Part shown: in pieces, positions 14,378 to 64,000 of the stretch
Numbering within the stretch: the first letter of the stretch is position 1
Layout: the number at the start of each line of letters is the position of its first letter
Sequence record: DRR378314_685
Reading direction: 5' to 3' (one strand)
Length of the DNA: 64,000 nucleotides
Notes under the pieces: generated by a model
Told to the model about the DNA's origin: nothing
Databases searched by the model: none
What the model saw: the letters and a program-made list of their open reading frames with translations, nothing else
Position numbers and translations under genes: made by a program

Positions 14378-14482
14378 TGTCGATACCTTTGCTCGGTGTC
14401 GTATCGCGTTGCTTCGTGTCGTCATTTGTCGCGATATGTTGCGTTCTGTCGTTCAAATGTAAGTGTGATGTCGCGGCTGTCA
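14378..14482 (+). repeat. 10-bp-phased TGTCG array A
   Basis: Cores at 14397, 14407, 14417, 14427, 14437, 14447; flanking copies at 14378, 14469, 14478. Confidence 0.85.
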
Positions 14483-16346: not shown

Positions 16347-17678
16347 CTATTCGATGATTTCCATGCCTTCGGGAATGATGAAAGGCGCGGTGGCCACTTC
16401 GACGCCCCCGGTTTCGATCACTTCGCCCGGCCCGCCTTCGCGGCGCTCATAGGCCTCTGCAAGAGACAGATAGGGTGGGACATGGATCCAGCCTGAATTG
16501 GCATCATTCTGCGTGATCTCGAAGTGCAGGTGGAACGTGGTCGGAGTGCCTCCAAAATCGTTGGAGACATATCCAATGTGCTGGCCTGCGGTGACGGGAT
16601 CACCGGCCTTCACCTCCAGTTTGCTCATGTTCATGTGCATGTACTTGTAGATCCGGCCGCCCGCGCGCAGATTCACGCTATAGGTGCCAACATGAGAGAT
16701 GATGCCGTCCTCCACAGCGACCACCTTGTGCAGGGCGCGGTCCGCCGCTGATGTGCGGCGCAGCGTATTGCAATCCGCCGCTGTGCCGACACGAATGTCC
16801 TGCCCCTGATGAACCTTTGGAAGAGGGCAGTAGGGAGAGGTGCGATTGGCCGAGCGGACTTCGCAGAAATTATCTCGCCACGGATAAGTGTAATTGCGCG
16901 CATCGCATTGGTCGCCGCCTGCAACGCCGCCGCCAAAGCTGAACACTTGTGACTGAAGATAGGCCGGCGCATCCGCAATCGGGAAGACGATGTCGGGCGC
17001 ATAGGCAATCTGGTCAGGCGCGCCCTGACCGGAGCCGGGCAGCAGCGCGCCAGCTTCGAAATAACTGAACGTGGGCTCGACAGGGTCCGGAAGGCTGACT
17101 GTGTCGTCGCCACCATCATTCGCTGGCGTATCCGTATCGCCCGGCGTGTCCGGAGCCTGGGTGTCATCTAAGCCTGCATCATCATCAGATGGGGGATTGG
17201 TGTCGGTATCGTCGCCAGTGTCCAGATCAGTGTCGATGTCTGTGTCCGGAACGGTGTCTGTGTCGTCAGGATTGTTTGTATCCGCATCCGGTTCGCCGTC
17301 GGTGGTATCGTCCGCGGCGGGCGTGTCGGCGTCGTCTGCGGGTGCATCCGCGTCGTCTGTGTCAGTTGCCGCATCCGTATCGTCAGGAAGGTCGTCGCTT
17401 CCATCGTCAGGCTCTGCCGGATCATCCGTTACGGGATCAGCCGGCATATCCGGCCCGGCATCTACATCGCCGTCATCTGTGCCCGTGTCTCCACCCGTAC
17501 CGTATGGATCATCCACGGGGGCAGAGGGCGGTGGCGGCCCCGGTGCGCCCGGCGGAACAGCCGGGCCTGTGTCCGGCGTTTCCGGGCTTGGCCCGCCATC
17601 CCCCGGAAATCTCACAAAGTCGCATGCGGCGAGCATCAGAGCGGTGCTCGCCAGTAGCAGCAATCTCGTTGGTTTCAT
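16347..17678 (-). CDS. M23 family metallopeptidase lipoprotein with long Asp/Thr/Pro-rich linker
   Basis: Lipobox LAAC; HQGQD and HLHFE Zn motifs; start overlaps stop of upstream gene. Confidence 0.82.
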   Translation of the reverse strand: MKPTRLLLLASTALMLAACDFVRFPGDGGPSPETPDTGPAVPPGAPGPPPPSAPVDDPYGTGGDTGTDDGDVDAGPDMPADPVTDDPAEPDDGSDDLPDDTDAATDTDDADAPADDADTPAADDTTDGEPDADTNNPDDTDTVPDTDIDTDLDTGDDTDTNPPSDDDAGLDDTQAPDTPGDTDTPANDGGDDTVSLPDPVEPTFSYFEAGALLPGSGQGAPDQIAYAPDIVFPIADAPAYLQSQVFSFGGGVAGGDQCDARNYTYPWRDNFCEVRSANRTSPYCPLPKVHQGQDIRVGTAADCNTLRRTSAADRALHKVVAVEDGIISHVGTYSVNLRAGGRIYKYMHMNMSKLEVKAGDPVTAGQHIGYVSNDFGGTPTTFHLHFEITQNDANSGWIHVPPYLSLAEAYERREGGPGEVIETGGVEVATAPFIIPEGMEIIE

Positions 17679-31708: not shown

Positions 31709-31795
31709 GCCTCTGTGGCGGAATTGGTAGACGCGACGGATTCAAAATCCGTTTCTGGTGACAGAGTGCCGGTTCGAGTCCGGCCAGAGGTACCA
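31709..31795 (+). tRNA. tRNA-Leu(CAA)
   Basis: Acceptor GCCTCTG/CAGAGGT + ACCA; anticodon arm ACGGA-TTCAAAA-TCCGT; long variable arm; GGTTCGAGTCC. Confidence 0.97.
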
Positions 31796-39225: not shown

Positions 39226-39567
39226 ATGACGCGGGCGCTGATCTATGAACAGTCGCCGGGCCAACGGTTCGCGATCGACGCCGAGATCCTGCACAAGCAG
39301 CCGGAATTGCTGAATGATTTCGGGCGCTACATGCATGCCCGTTTCCGCATTCTGGATGCCGTGGCCTACTTTATATGTCTGGCCGGTGTGCTGGCCTCTC
39401 TCGCCCTGGTCTGGTGGGCTTTCCTGCCGGGCATCGCCATCTGCACCATGATGTTGGCGGTCAATCGCAAGGCGGCTGGCGAGATTGCACGCAAAGCGGC
39501 AAAGAAGTCCGTCGATGACTTCCGCAAACTTCACGAAATGGGCTGTCTCTGGCTGGTGTTCGCCTGA
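39226..39567 (+). CDS. Hypothetical small membrane protein
   Basis: Two hydrophobic helices; start uncertain. Confidence 0.6.
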   Translation: MTRALIYEQSPGQRFAIDAEILHKQPELLNDFGRYMHARFRILDAVAYFICLAGVLASLALVWWAFLPGIAICTMMLAVNRKAAGEIARKAAKKSVDDFRKLHEMGCLWLVFA

Positions 39568-39572
39568 TCCGC

Positions 39573-39989
39573 CTAGATGCGCACCATGCCCAGGACGGCA
39601 GAAACAATCGCCACCAAAGCGAACATGAGTGAAAAGCTGACCGACACCGCGCGCTGGTCTTTGCGGCTCGTGCGAACGCCTTTGGCTTTCTTGCCCGGTG
39701 CCAGCATCCAGCGATTTGAAAAGAACCCGAACGCCGCCAGCAATGCCGTGACCGCGGCCGCCCAACTGGTGGCCAGCAGATAGAATGCCCCCGATGCCAG
39801 CATCATGCCGGCGATGGGCGTTGAGGTCTGCAGCAGCAATTCCCGCACATGCCGATCCGCGCGCGAACCATCCAGTTTGTCAAAACTGCAATTCGGCGAT
39901 GCGATGGCGGCGACCCATGAGGCGCCGATGGCCATCGCTCCGAAGAGCAGGCCGAGATGGGTGGCAGTGGTGGAGAGACCTTGAAGCAT
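39573..39989 (-). CDS. Hypothetical 4-TM membrane protein
   Basis: Four hydrophobic segments with a basic loop. Confidence 0.7.
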   Translation of the reverse strand: MLQGLSTTATHLGLLFGAMAIGASWVAAIASPNCSFDKLDGSRADRHVRELLLQTSTPIAGMMLASGAFYLLATSWAAAVTALLAAFGFFSNRWMLAPGKKAKGVRTSRKDQRAVSVSFSLMFALVAIVSAVLGMVRI

Positions 39990-40041
39990 GTCGCAATTAT
40001 GCGCCGGATTCGCGTATCAGCCTAGAGAAAGCTTACCGGAG

Positions 40042-40160
40042 GCGACACGGCGCAACGCGCTGGCGACCTCCGGCAAAACAATTGGCGACATGTTGCGACA
40101 TATGGCGACACTGGGCGACAGATCGCAACAAGCCGCGACGGGCGACGACAAACGTCTACA
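40042..40160 (-). repeat. 10-bp-phased TGTCG array B (CGACA on the + strand)
   Basis: Cores at 40086, 40096, 40106, 40116, 40126, 40136, 40146, 40156; more at 40043, 40053, 40064. Confidence 0.9.
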
Positions 40161-41286
40161 GGGCGGCTTCGTACACTTTCGCGTAATCGTCAGCGCTCAT
40201 CGGCTTCGGATTGCCGAAATGCGCCAGATCCTTCAGCGCGTATTCCACAACGCCCGGCGCATCGTCTGCACTGAGGCCGATTGCGGAAAGCGTTGCCGGA
40301 ATGCCGATATCTGCGTTCAGCTCTGCAATCGCATCGCCCAGATCCGCGCCCGGTTTCAGGCCCATGGCCTGGCGCAGGCGGGCGTACTTCTCATCCGCCG
40401 TGCCTTCGTGGAAGCGCAGGATATGCGGCAGGAAGATCGCATTCAGTGTGCCGTGGTGCAGTTTCTTTTCATGCAGGCGGCCCGCAGCATGTGACAGGGC
40501 GTGGACGCCGCCCAGACCCTTCACAAAGGCCAGTGCGCCCTCATAACTGGCCATCATCATGTGCCAGCGGGCGTCTGCATCAGAGCCGTCCTGCACGGCC
40601 TTTTTCAGCCAGCCATTCCCGACAGAGCGGAACACGCCTTCATAGGCGATGCCTTCGGCAGGCGGGTTCACGGAAGGGGAGAGCACGGACTCGATGCAAT
40701 GCGTGACAGCATCCATGCCCGTTGCAGCGGTAAGTCCTGCTGGCAGGCCCAGCGTCAAATCCGGGTCACAGATTGCTGTCGCCGGGATCAGGTTTGGCGA
40801 AACGATCGTTTCCTTGCGCCCATTCTCGAGAACGATGACCATGCCGACGGACACTTCAGAGCCAGTGCCGGAGGTGGTCGGAATGGCGATCAGGGGCGGG
40901 ATCTTGCCGATCTTCTTCGCGCCGCCCGTGATCGCCGCATAGGTTTCCAGCGGCTCGTCATGGCTGACCAGAAGGCCAATGCCCTTGGCATGGTCCATAG
41001 AAGAGCCACCGCCCAGCGCGATCAGGCCATCCGCGCCGCATGCCTTGTAGGCCGCGGCAGCTTCCTTGGTTTGCTTTTCAGTCGGGTTGGGAACCGTTTC
41101 AGCGAATACGCCCGCCGGTGCAACGCCTAGCGCGTCTTCCACCTTTGCCAGGATACCTGCCGCCTTGATGCCCGGATCCGTGACGATGAAGGGGCGAGAC
41201 ATGCCCAGCTTCTTGGCTGTACCGGCCAGCTGCTTCAGTGCGCCGGAGTCAAAGATACAGGTTGTGAGATAATTGATGACGGGCAT
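40156..41286 (-). CDS. Iron-containing alcohol dehydrogenase
   Basis: GGGSSMD, PTTSGTGSEV, DAVTHCIE, HALSH...HHGTLN. Confidence 0.93.
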   Translation of the reverse strand: MPVINYLTTCIFDSGALKQLAGTAKKLGMSRPFIVTDPGIKAAGILAKVEDALGVAPAGVFAETVPNPTEKQTKEAAAAYKACGADGLIALGGGSSMDHAKGIGLLVSHDEPLETYAAITGGAKKIGKIPPLIAIPTTSGTGSEVSVGMVIVLENGRKETIVSPNLIPATAICDPDLTLGLPAGLTAATGMDAVTHCIESVLSPSVNPPAEGIAYEGVFRSVGNGWLKKAVQDGSDADARWHMMMASYEGALAFVKGLGGVHALSHAAGRLHEKKLHHGTLNAIFLPHILRFHEGTADEKYARLRQAMGLKPGADLGDAIAELNADIGIPATLSAIGLSADDAPGVVEYALKDLAHFGNPKPMSADDYAKVYEAAL

Positions 41287-54290: not shown

Positions 54291-54452
54291 ATAATAAATG
54301 CCAACAAATTCAAGGCACTGTTGTTTGCCGAATATCGATATGGTTGCGCGTTTTTCAAGTCAAGCGATGCCGAATAAACTGGAGAAGAATTCATGCAATG
54401 CATTGTAGCGCTGAATCGATGCGACAAGCGGAACCCGTTCCGTTCGCATGGA

Positions 54453-55991
54453 TCAGGCATGGCCACCCAAATCGAAGCTGAGCTGAACCGACTTGGCAGG
54501 TAAGGCGTGGATACGTCCAGACTTCGACATGCCCGCCCTGCGCGCCATATTCGGCCGTGCCGGAACACCAAATGGCAACGCATGCGAACTTTGCTCAGGG
54601 AACAGGTGACGGCGAGCCGCCCTGGCCGCAGCCATATGATCAACCATTCTCATCGGATAGGATTGGCCCAGGACAATGCCCTTCTCGGCGAGCAGACTTT
54701 TTGGGGCATCCCAAGGCGAGTGGATCAGCGCGTCCGGCAGGTCAGCGATTTCAGGTATCCATTTTCGAATGAAGGTGCCCTCAGGATCGCGCATCTGGGA
54801 GTGTCGTACCGGATTCGGAATTTGCCCGACGGGGTGTGAGCTGATGCCGACAACTTTCCGTGCGTTTCCATAGAACAGGGCCCCGTCAAAATCGGTGGAG
54901 AGCCGCGCCAGATGCTGGGCAGGCGCAGTCGGATCCAGCCAGAGATGGCACGTCGCGAATGACAGAAGCAGGCTGCGCAACCCTGATTCGAGGCGTCCGG
55001 TGGCCTGAAGGCAGCGCATGCTGGCATCAAGAAGTGGGAAACCTGTGCGGCCACTGGCCCAGGCAGCCAGGCGGGGATCTGCCGCGCCGACCATTTCACG
55101 TTTGAAAATATCATTTGGAAGACCGGCATTCTCAACCTGCTCATGACGTGGTTTGGCGGTCAGCAGGCGAGACCTATGTTCCAGATTCTCAACAAATGCG
55201 TCGAGCGAGGCGGCAAACGTCTCATCCCCATCGGATAGAAGGGCACCTTTGGCACGCATCGCCGCCTGCCAGACCTCGCGATCCGATAATGTGCCCCAGT
55301 TCAGGTAGGGGGACAGGCCGGAGGCTGATGATTCCCGGTCCGTAACAGAGAGATTGCGTTTGGAGGCCGGCCGTCCGCGACCTGCCAGATATTGGCGCAG
55401 CTGAAGCACACCATTGGTGCGGCCTCCAGTCTTGCGGCCTGCACATGCGTCGTCATCCAATCCGTAATCTGATGCGACCGGCCAGTCTTCCGACACCATA
55501 TCCGGCGTGTCCAAGTTTTCCGGTGCATTGAGACGTGGCTGGCGCATGTAGTGCCGGAAAGCGGTTTCCGACTCTCCCGGAGTTATTGGCATCGCACGCC
55601 TTACGGCCTGCTCGCGCAATGGGATTCCGGCTTTCATGGCCCAGCTGCGGACGTGCTGAACGCGTTCCGTCTCTTCCGGATCGTGACTTGCCGCATGGAA
55701 GTGGAGGGAGGCGATCCCGTACTGGGTGTGAATTTGCGACAGGACTTCGGCTGCGTTGCCGGATCTCAGGCACAACTTGCTTCCGCGTTTGCGCAGGGCA
55801 CCGTCGAGATCTGCAAGGGATTCCAGAAGAAAGTCGAATTGGCGGCCGGATGTGTCTGGGCGATGCCAATGCCGGGTGTCAAAAATGTAGAGGGGCAGGA
55901 CCTGCCCGCCTGATGCGCAGGCGGCCACAAGGGCTGCGTGATCATGCACCCGCAAGTCTCGTCTGAACCAGATGACATGTAAATCGTTCAT
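54453..55991 (-). CDS. Photolyase/cryptochrome-fold protein, degenerate
   Basis: WFRRDLRVHDH.AL, SGLSPYL.WG, GRTGFPLLDASMR, DPEG.FIRKWIPE. Confidence 0.88.
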   Translation of the reverse strand: MNDLHVIWFRRDLRVHDHAALVAACASGGQVLPLYIFDTRHWHRPDTSGRQFDFLLESLADLDGALRKRGSKLCLRSGNAAEVLSQIHTQYGIASLHFHAASHDPEETERVQHVRSWAMKAGIPLREQAVRRAMPITPGESETAFRHYMRQPRLNAPENLDTPDMVSEDWPVASDYGLDDDACAGRKTGGRTNGVLQLRQYLAGRGRPASKRNLSVTDRESSASGLSPYLNWGTLSDREVWQAAMRAKGALLSDGDETFAASLDAFVENLEHRSRLLTAKPRHEQVENAGLPNDIFKREMVGAADPRLAAWASGRTGFPLLDASMRCLQATGRLESGLRSLLLSFATCHLWLDPTAPAQHLARLSTDFDGALFYGNARKVVGISSHPVGQIPNPVRHSQMRDPEGTFIRKWIPEIADLPDALIHSPWDAPKSLLAEKGIVLGQSYPMRMVDHMAAARAARRHLFPEQSSHALPFGVPARPNMARRAGMSKSGRIHALPAKSVQLSFDLGGHA

Positions 55992-62899: not shown

Positions 62900-64000
62900 A
62901 TGACTGAAACTGAGACGCCAAAGCGTAGTCGACTGATTGCGATTTCGAACAGGACCGCTGCGGGGCAGGAAAGCCGCGCCGGTGGGCTCGCTGTGGCTTT
63001 GTGGGACTCGCTTGCCGATACACGAGGACTCTGGATCGGCTGGAGCGGTCGCATTCTGGACTTTCCCAGCAATCGCGCCCGCAAATCCAGCGAGGATGGC
63101 GTGGAGTTTGCCCTGACGGACTATTCCCGCGATCAGTTCGATGGGTTTTACCTGGGCTATTCAAACAGCGTGCTGTGGCCAGTGATGCACAATCGTATCG
63201 ATCTTGCCGTCTTCGATTCTTCGTTCTTTCGCTATTATGTGGAGATCAACGAGAAATTTTCCGACATTGTGCGACGTCAGGCGACAGAGGACGACTTGAT
63301 CTGGGTGCACGATTACCACTTCCTGCTTTTGGGCGGTATATTGCGGGAAGAAGGATGGACAGGACGCTGCGGTTTCTTCCTGCATATTCCATTCCCCTCT
63401 CCAGAAGTCTTTCGCGCTATTCCGGAGCATCGCAAGCTTGCGAAAGGCCTGTGCGCTTATGATGTTGTCGGCCTGCAATGCCGGAAAGATCTGGCCAATC
63501 TGGCGCAGTACCTGGAAGAGGAATTCGGCGCCGAGGAACAGCCAGATGGCAAGTTCCTGGTTGAAGGTCGTATTGTGCATTTGCTGCATTGTCCGATCGG
63601 CATCGACAGCAAGTCATTCGCGCAGACAGCGCAGGACGAACCAGCAACGCGCGCCGCAAGCCGCCTGTCCCGGTTTCTTGGAGAGCGGGATCTGGTCATC
63701 GGTGTCGACCGAATGGATTACTCCAAGGGATTGCCACAGCGTTTCGAAGGCATGGCGGATCTGTTCGACAGATATCCCGAGCTGCACGGCAAGATCTCGT
63801 TCACGCAGATCGCGCCGCCATCGCGCTCCGTTGTAGAAGAATATGCGCAGCTTCGCGAACAGCTGGATGCCCTGTCCGGGCGCATCAATGGAGACTATGG
63901 TGATCTCGACTGGATGCCGATCAGGTATCTCGCACGCGGATATGATCGCGAGGAGATTGCCGGTCTATATAGACTTGCCACGGCGTGCCTTGTGACGCCT
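62900..64000 (+). CDS. otsA: Trehalose-6-phosphate synthase (3' end outside window; absent from ORF track)
   Basis: Read from DNA: RLIAISNR, AGGLAVAL, IWVHDYH, GFFLHIPFP, GVDRMDYSKG. Confidence 0.93.
   Translation, partial: MTETETPKRSRLIAISNRTAAGQESRAGGLAVALWDSLADTRGLWIGWSGRILDFPSNRARKSSEDGVEFALTDYSRDQFDGFYLGYSNSVLWPVMHNRIDLAVFDSSFFRYYVEINEKFSDIVRRQATEDDLIWVHDYHFLLLGGILREEGWTGRCGFFLHIPFPSPEVFRAIPEHRKLAKGLCAYDVVGLQCRKDLANLAQYLEEEFGAEEQPDGKFLVEGRIVHLLHCPIGIDSKSFAQTAQDEPATRAASRLSRFLGERDLVIGVDRMDYSKGLPQRFEGMADLFDRYPELHGKISFTQIAPPSRSVVEEYAQLREQLDALSGRINGDYGDLDWMPIRYLARGYDREEIAGLYRLATACLVTP

Follow-up and report, generated by a model that had tools for sequence, protein, structure and literature searches.

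Array B and its surroundings

What is the function of a row of TGTCG cores, set exactly ten bases apart, that lies between an alcohol dehydrogenase gene and a small membrane-protein gene in the window (the whole stretch of 64,000 nucleotides analysed here)? A sequence-only reading of this row, termed array B, had proposed a protein that binds cooperatively and head-to-tail along one face of the DNA. The features of the locus are:

40156-41286 (- strand): iron-containing alcohol dehydrogenase (Fe-ADH) gene, upstream flank of array B, Pfam PF00465/PF25137
40086-40160 (- strand): array B main track, eight slots, unit TGTCGC-N4; five central cores kept in L406, the locus of a further species
40042-40068 (- strand): array B satellite cores GGTCGC, CGTTGC and TGTCGC in roughly helical phase; all three hexamers unchanged in L406
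40021-40034 (- strand): relic of a TetR-like gene, comprising its last codons and stop; array-less relatives have the gene here
39989-39994 (- strand): an isolated core in inverted orientation that overlaps the membrane-protein start codon; also in L406
39573-39989 (- strand): gene for a 138-aa hydrophobic protein, downstream flank of array B, no Pfam family

The described row of eight cores was recovered as eight consecutive slots at exact 10-bp pitch on the - strand, each with at most one mismatch to TGTCG and five of them exact. The slots read TGTAG (40160), TGTCG (40150), CGTCG (40140), TGTTG (40130) and then TGTCG at 40120, 40110, 40100 and 40090, and every spacer is different. The first slot is the weakest because it overlaps the Fe-ADH stop codon, and a ninth, at 40080, has two mismatches to the core. 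Three more cores had been reported beyond the main track, and these begin at 40068, 40057 and 40047, following gaps of 22, 11 and 10 bp. The flanking genes had been named as an Fe-ADH and a four-transmembrane protein; the first assignment is supported by Pfam, while the 138-aa protein has three or four hydrophobic stretches. The TetR-like label of the relic is one that we presume from the sequence of the complete gene in relatives.

The expected enrichment over composition controls was found: in 200 order-4 Markov simulations of the window, no 5-mer ever recurred four times at 10-bp pitch. The window itself has two such places, both being overlapping words of array B. An Rfam search gave no structured-RNA match at array B, and no sigma-70-like site was present in 39500-40400. 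The gene for the 138-aa protein occurs in all 25 genomes of the genus that were searched, and array B is therefore not tied to it. RNA contigs from two metatranscriptomes cross array B, possibly through DNA carry-over.

A genome-wide family of phased arrays

Gene content suggests that the window comes from a Hyphomonas-like alphaproteobacterium, one of a small group of marine bacteria. The genome nearest to the window is G001, an assembly in 60 contigs that has 69% of sampled 31-mers in common with it. Exact TGTCGY-N4-TGTCGY pairs number 79 in G001 compared with 3 in G008 and 0 in G011, and the 79 pairs merge to about 66 loci, or approximately one per 55 kb. The genome scan for phased cores, proposed as a check on the sequence-only reading, gave 33 matches to a four-core pattern in G001 and 0 to the reversed control; reversed-pattern controls in this genome returned 0-1 matches throughout. 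The array unit is TGTCGC-N4, the sixth base being C in 74% of 92 paired units. Spacings between cores on the same strand peak at 10, 20/21, 30/31, 41/42 and 51 bp, at loci that were selected by motif, and the same peaks appear in 124 kb of continuous sequence (itself array-rich) and are absent from 160 kb of sister DNA. Inverted core pairs show no spacing peak in G001. The pitch of about 10.3 bp indicates double-stranded DNA. The density of single cores is barely raised (3.7 versus 3.3 per kb), and the signal lies in the phasing.

Two other members of the family were found in the window:

14378-14474 (+ strand): array A, between divergent DUF983 and prephenate dehydrogenase genes; not in five congeners
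63262-63296 (- strand): weak third array of four slots (two exact), within coding sequence; the G008 ortholog is without phased cores

The arrays are spread evenly. On 13 large contigs of G001 their counts are proportional to contig size (chi-square p=0.91, with one size being a lower bound). A bias towards the origin or terminus, suspected initially, was ruled out by these even counts and by arrays lying 42 and 35 kb from the dif candidate at G001:C62:72841. This candidate was located with a putative dif motif; the dif-like site is common to three congeners and agrees with the half-way point of the complete genome G043. Replication-strand bias was ruled out on contig C1, where seven arrays are on the plus and nine on the minus strand. 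A single ParR-like centromere, one of the analogues suggested for array B, is not supported, given some 66 loci spread over the genome.

By the gene calls made for this analysis, 48 of the 66 loci (73%) lie in genes, many of them mid-gene. The remaining 18 are intergenic, which is a somewhat larger share than the 17% expected (p=0.02). The host genes (ligA, pgi, pyk, argF, rpe, glmU, truA, hisD, spoT, nuoM, cobS and fzlA) serve housekeeping and metabolism, are unrelated to one another and show no functional theme. Inspection revealed no cognate gene adjoining any of the 66 loci, and no shared flanks among the arrays inspected. Within genes, GCGACA is on the coding strand at 38 of 48 loci, compared with 57-67% under coding-constraint nulls (p 0.002-0.07). 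Array B is a member of a lineage-restricted, genome-wide family, much of which is written into coding sequence, and is not a local promoter element. Control of promoters is made less likely by the even spread and by the location of many arrays in the middle of genes, both of which favour a role at the level of the chromosome, as with SlmA sites (PMC3116907) or HIP1 (PMC5861425).

Two individual loci may be mentioned. At L025 (G001:C45:245929-246100), the array is followed directly by a REP-like palindromic element. At L664 (G001:C34, near 32300), one array pair lies in a chromosomal gene resembling those of class D beta-lactamases, which matched the OXA-1090 family model above its cut-off.

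Restriction to one clade and conservation of the cores

Among 80 genomes of its genus, G001 is the only one rich in arrays, with 45 matches to a three-core pattern versus at most 2 in each of the other 79. At the family level, a four-core pattern matched 18 times in G001, and 3 of 250 other genomes had 1-2 matches. At the class level, 399 of 400 other genomes had at most 5 three-core matches, and one class genome with 62 carries a copied repeat with fixed flanks. G312, an unpublished genome, contributes a single entry to this tally. Array B is absent upstream of the orthologous 138-aa gene in all 24 congeners compared.

Among 39 of 45 metagenome loci, array B was found in one further species (L406, identical to L433), which is 89% identical over 6.4 kb at this locus. 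The prediction that cores would be kept at the orthologous locus was borne out at a single locus in a single sister species: array B's five central cores are identical at 30/30 bases and their spacers at 10/20 (Fisher p=1.8e-5). Over all eight units, the figures are 44/48 for cores and 17/32 for spacers, and the four-fold sites of the flanking genes are identical at 208/308. As the sequence-only reading had held, array B is not a slippage-type repeat; its cores are kept and its spacers have drifted between the two species. Such conservation would also be expected from molecular drive or biased repair. Core-breaking variants occur within the species, for example at 40100, where G001 and three of four runs differ, and at 40116, which differs in one contig (depth 5); selection on each core is therefore weak. 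Turnover of the motif, by which congeners would carry arrays built on a different word, is not supported in the sample covered: 60-80 kb of each of four congeners, scanned without presetting a motif, contained no such arrays at 10-bp pitch.

Origin of the arrays

Between Fe-ADH and the membrane-protein gene, the nearest array-less relatives have a two-gene cassette whose last gene is the TetR-like one. In the array clade, the cassette has been lost, its last codons are retained and array B occupies the gap.

The clearest genic case is ligA, which in G001 carries six GCGACA cores at spacings of 10, 11, 10, 10 and 10. No such row was found in 23 other ligA orthologues. The gene is 2100 nt long in G001, G008 and G011, showing that the cores were gained by substitution and without indels, and outside the array it is not enriched in cores. 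Residues that differ from both sisters make up 6 of 19 within the array versus 45 of 681 elsewhere. When 20 loci were compared with sisters, nine were gap-free (aligned to a sister without a full pair), six had length changes and five were uninformative; near-cores were already present in the sister at three of the nine gap-free loci. Tandem repetition, copying of an element and chance are ruled out for ligA and eight other gap-free loci, which changed by substitution without indels. Most likely, the arrays postdate the divergence of the two-species clade from its congeners, having formed within genes through point substitution and between genes through substitution combined with small changes of length.

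A predicted binder and the search for it

Helical phase, direct orientation, free spacers and kept cores are best read, by analogy with BldC and RdfS, as the sites of a cooperative head-to-tail binder. We tentatively prefer, with confidence that falls just short of even, the explanation that the 66 or more arrays are tracks for such a TGTCGC binder, which would have a chromosome-level job and be kept by weak selection. A sequence-specific protein would read TGTCGC and stack head-to-tail, with one subunit per helical turn, to form a short filament; its fold would most likely be a winged helix like those of BldC, Xis and RacA. The filament may load, compact, bridge or mark the nucleoid about every 55 kb, and the tracks would not serve to control neighbouring genes. 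The coding-strand bias of GCGACA is left unaccounted for by this model.

Searches of G001 and four to five sisters for HTH_17, HTH_23, HTH_24, ParA, ParB, SciP and RegA proteins identified no protein that was gained or altered in step with the arrays; for HTH_23, HTH_24 and ParB, part of the matches was inspected as sequence. HTH_17 gave 11 matches in G001, ten of which were inspected and proved to be mobile-element proteins, MerR/SoxR, antitoxins or the terminase of a gene transfer agent (GTA), and the eleventh has matches of equal size in sisters. The ParB search returned one canonical ParB and five other matches in open frames of 499-673 aa, a size class also found in sisters; judged by frame size, these five include no Noc-like ParB paralogue.

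A ParA-like islet (L460, G001:C56:130152-131679, - strand) lies between array loci on its contig, adjoining what we take to be uvrB. Its two genes code for a ParA-like ATPase with an N-terminal hydrophobic segment and for a partner of 127 aa that weakly resembles Rho_N. The islet was rejected as the source of the binder since it is sporadic, occurring in 12 of 251 family genomes including the array-less G243.

The TGTCG-N5 unit in phages and other lineages

Arrays of TGTCG-N5 found elsewhere are analogies and not evidence on G001. When species genomes were scanned for four exact cores, at least 120 matches were obtained, many of them perfect tandem repeats. Among those listed, matches with varied spacers include some that precede HTH_17 clusters, some that adjoin a ParA/DUF3408 pair and some that fall within genes of a winged-helix/coiled-coil family. 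Clostridial matches resemble tandem Spo0A boxes. The winged-helix/coiled-coil family (proteins P0001-P0122; 1086 matches) has no Pfam DNA-binding domain and occurs at alphaproteobacterial loci of mobile appearance. Three of its genes were examined and contain 9, 4 and 7 phased GCGACA pairs:

L115:1225-2007 (- strand): winged-helix/coiled-coil gene with phased pairs
L065:1296-1808 (+ strand): winged-helix/coiled-coil gene with phased pairs
L118:1166-1933 (+ strand): winged-helix/coiled-coil gene with phased pairs

These pairs are probably binding sites of the family's own proteins. A model of the family gave TM-scores (by target) of 0.57-0.68 against BldC, Xis and RacA, with E above 0.05; the fold search returned nothing at E<=0.001, and a PDB sequence search with the P0001 alignment returned coiled coils only. 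The family was not found in G001 by single-sequence and profile searches, the profile being run without a positive control genome.

Six of 49 genomes chosen by such matches contained 40-169 three-core matches. In those inspected among the six, the arrays are mostly in copied intergenic repeats with shared flanks, unlike those of G001. Copied intergenic repeat families were recorded in:

G728, G730, G697, G716, G722, G513 and G699 (L545-L590): TGTCG-N5 repeats in Dehalococcoidia, Gemmatimonas, Terriglobia, Verrucomicrobiia, two alphaproteobacteria and one Bathyarchaeia genome

The Gemmatimonas copies are often divergent pairs. A separate case is an Oscillospiraceae contig (L063/L591, G684:C24:88-432) where about 35 phased TGTCG/TGTCA units, nearly all with different spacers, lie near a phage-terminase-like gene. 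In viral contigs, among the matches listed, arrays adjoin genes for integrase, excisionase, initiator, primase and terminase (99 ORFs; no neighbour control). The unit is found in phages and, as part of copied repeats, in at least six distant lineages, which suggests that the phenomenon may be recurrent.

Comparison with known systems

Plasmid parC centromeres and phage iterons consist of helically phased short direct repeats with free spacers, and occupy one locus beside the cognate gene, whereas the arrays of G001 are genome-wide. REP/MITE elements and tandem repeats differ in that the G001 arrays have no copied flanks or whole units, and the length of ligA is unchanged. Known uptake sequences are single words of 9-12 bp.

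BldC binds direct repeats head-to-tail (PMC5859096). The sites of BldC, Xis and RdfS filaments (PMC5859096, PMC11963761) resemble the G001 arrays in having a short asymmetric word, directly repeated about once per helical turn in a variable number of units. In contrast, BldC reads AATT-N4-C at promoters (PMC5859096) while the G001 word is TGTCGC and most sites are in genes, RdfS has no consensus (PMC11963761), and no protein of the BldC/Xis/RdfS kind was found to track the arrays in G001.

Uptake sequences of Pasteurellaceae (USS) and Neisseriaceae (DUS) are similar in being lineage-restricted words that accumulate by point changes, much of them in genes, with no link to gene function (PMC2817400). 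In Haemophilus influenzae, 65% of USS are in ORFs, and a drive model has been put forward (PMC2817400). They comprise hundreds to thousands of single words (PMC2817400), compared with the roughly 66 multi-core phased tracks described here.

SlmA sites are mainly in coding regions (PMC3116907), and sites of SlmA, Noc and MatP (PMC3116907), like the G001 tracks, number in the tens and are mainly coding, with a chromosome-level function in those systems. SlmA and MatP sites are single palindromes, excluded from or confined to the terminus (PMC3116907), whereas the tracks of G001 are asymmetric and approach to within 35-42 kb of the dif candidate; and for Noc, no Noc-like paralogue was found in G001. 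Cyanobacterial HIP1 is likewise an over-represented word, conserved within and between genes, with a proposed nucleoid role and no known binder (PMC5861425), but is a palindromic octamer that is far denser, phylum-wide and periodic at 10-90 kb rather than phased at 10 bp (PMC5861425).

The ingredients are known singly, as phased direct-repeat operators and as genome-wide words in coding sequence, while their combination fails the defining tests of each family that could be tested here. No description of such arrays was found in the open-access full-text literature. There is a real chance that the arrays, predicted to be dispersed chromosome-wide binding sites, represent a mechanism that is new in kind.

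Alternative explanations

The main alternative is molecular drive: DNA with phased TGTCGC tracks would be preferred by a packaging or uptake machine (the small terminase of a GTA or phage, or a receptor for competence), and alleles that add cores would spread by recombination, as uptake sequences do. A protein would still bind, but the arrays need not benefit the cell. We consider this unlikely, though deserving of weight. The distribution is that of an uptake sequence, being genome-wide, on both strands, largely within genes and without a link to gene function; amino-acid changes were tolerated in ligA; and exact-core pairs are absent from three stretches of 19-20 kb (an ICE-like region, an integrated relaxase element and the GTA cluster), a small sample. 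The GTA-like cluster of G001 (L214, L544; G001:C7:38000-58400) includes a small terminase with an N-terminal helix-turn-helix that is only 51-53% identical to those of the nearest sisters, versus 86% for the large terminase, and two viral arrays, among the matches listed, adjoin large-terminase genes. Against this, the cluster itself has no array, and known uptake sequences are single words and not multi-core tracks. The small terminase was rejected as the binder, as its helix-turn-helix form is present in 44 of 80 genus genomes and G017 and G022 have a similar recognition helix and no arrays. Drive fits the distribution equally well as the track model but is without a matching machine. The cluster also carries a ParA-like gene and partner between terminase and portal.

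Improbable, in our view, is a decoy defence, whereby the arrays soak up or handcuff a phage or plasmid replication initiator, excisionase or repressor that reads TGTCGC-N4 iterons. Such a defence predicts the independence from position that is seen, and among the viral matches listed the unit lies in or beside replication-initiator (4), excisionase-like (3) and integrase (5) genes; these counts are uncontrolled, however, no element of this kind is known to infect the clade, and one long array would presumably be cheaper than dozens of recoded genes.

Quite improbable as well is a mutational ratchet without selection, for which we know of no precedent, in which a bound filament, repair or methylation would bias the fixation of errors towards a core one turn away. 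The near-cores at the same place in sisters at three of nine gap-free loci and the core-breaking variants that segregate within the species are compatible with it, and the coding-strand bias of GCGACA could reflect transcription-linked mutation. A ratchet would still require a protein to set the phase, and is difficult to reconcile with the barely raised density of single cores or with the rest of ligA, which is not enriched.

It is very improbable that the arrays are ordinary promoter operators for a conserved regulator, for example SciP or RegA/PrrA, whose sites had been noted as resembling TGTCGC. The SciP half motif GCGAC (PMC4287350) does occur within the core, the share of intergenic loci is somewhat higher than expected, and arrays A and B are 50-170 bp upstream of genes. 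The full SciP site is the inverted repeat GCGNC-N5-GNCGC (PMC4287350), and a SciP/RegA regulon would have this or a half site at -60 to -90 of promoters, whereas 48 of 66 loci are in genes, many mid-gene, with no functional theme and no inverted-repeat spacing. Nor is the suggested link to either regulator supported, since array-rich G001 and its array-less sisters have nearly the same SciP and exactly the same RegA helix-turn-helix.

A decayed tandem repeat, a copied REP/MITE-like element or chance is scarcely credible: the TGTCG-N5 unit does sit in copied intergenic repeats with shared flanks in other phyla, and in G001 one of the arrays is in a linker of low complexity that contains a duplicated 21-bp unit, but the arrays inspected have no shared flanks, substitutions occurred inside conserved genes without indels, and reversed controls gave 0-1 matches.

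Implications

It is possible, though we would not call it probable, that the two-species clade recently gained a filament-forming binder (probably derived from a mobile element) and that its chromosome, essential genes included, was rewritten with dozens of phased tracks, either as a new nucleoid-organising system early in domestication or through a new molecular drive, with a packaging or uptake machine favouring phased multi-core DNA. The origins of the SlmA, Noc, uptake-sequence and HIP1 site systems are hard to study because these systems are old. The G001 system is young, and its array-less congeners, with DNA about 80% identical, display the ancestral sequence base by base; together with the strains and the sister species, this makes selection versus drive directly testable. 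If the binder organises DNA, it would bear on chromosome handling in stalked budding bacteria, in which a second step of chromosome segregation proceeds by a mechanism described as unknown (PMC6650430). The arrays are restricted to one clade and are therefore not a general mechanism of that step.

Other features of the window

Three segments (17119-17499, 54407-54623 and 55084-55694) had no blastn match in the syntenic DNA of four congeners. The only Rfam match in the window is a tRNA gene at 31709-31792 (+ strand).
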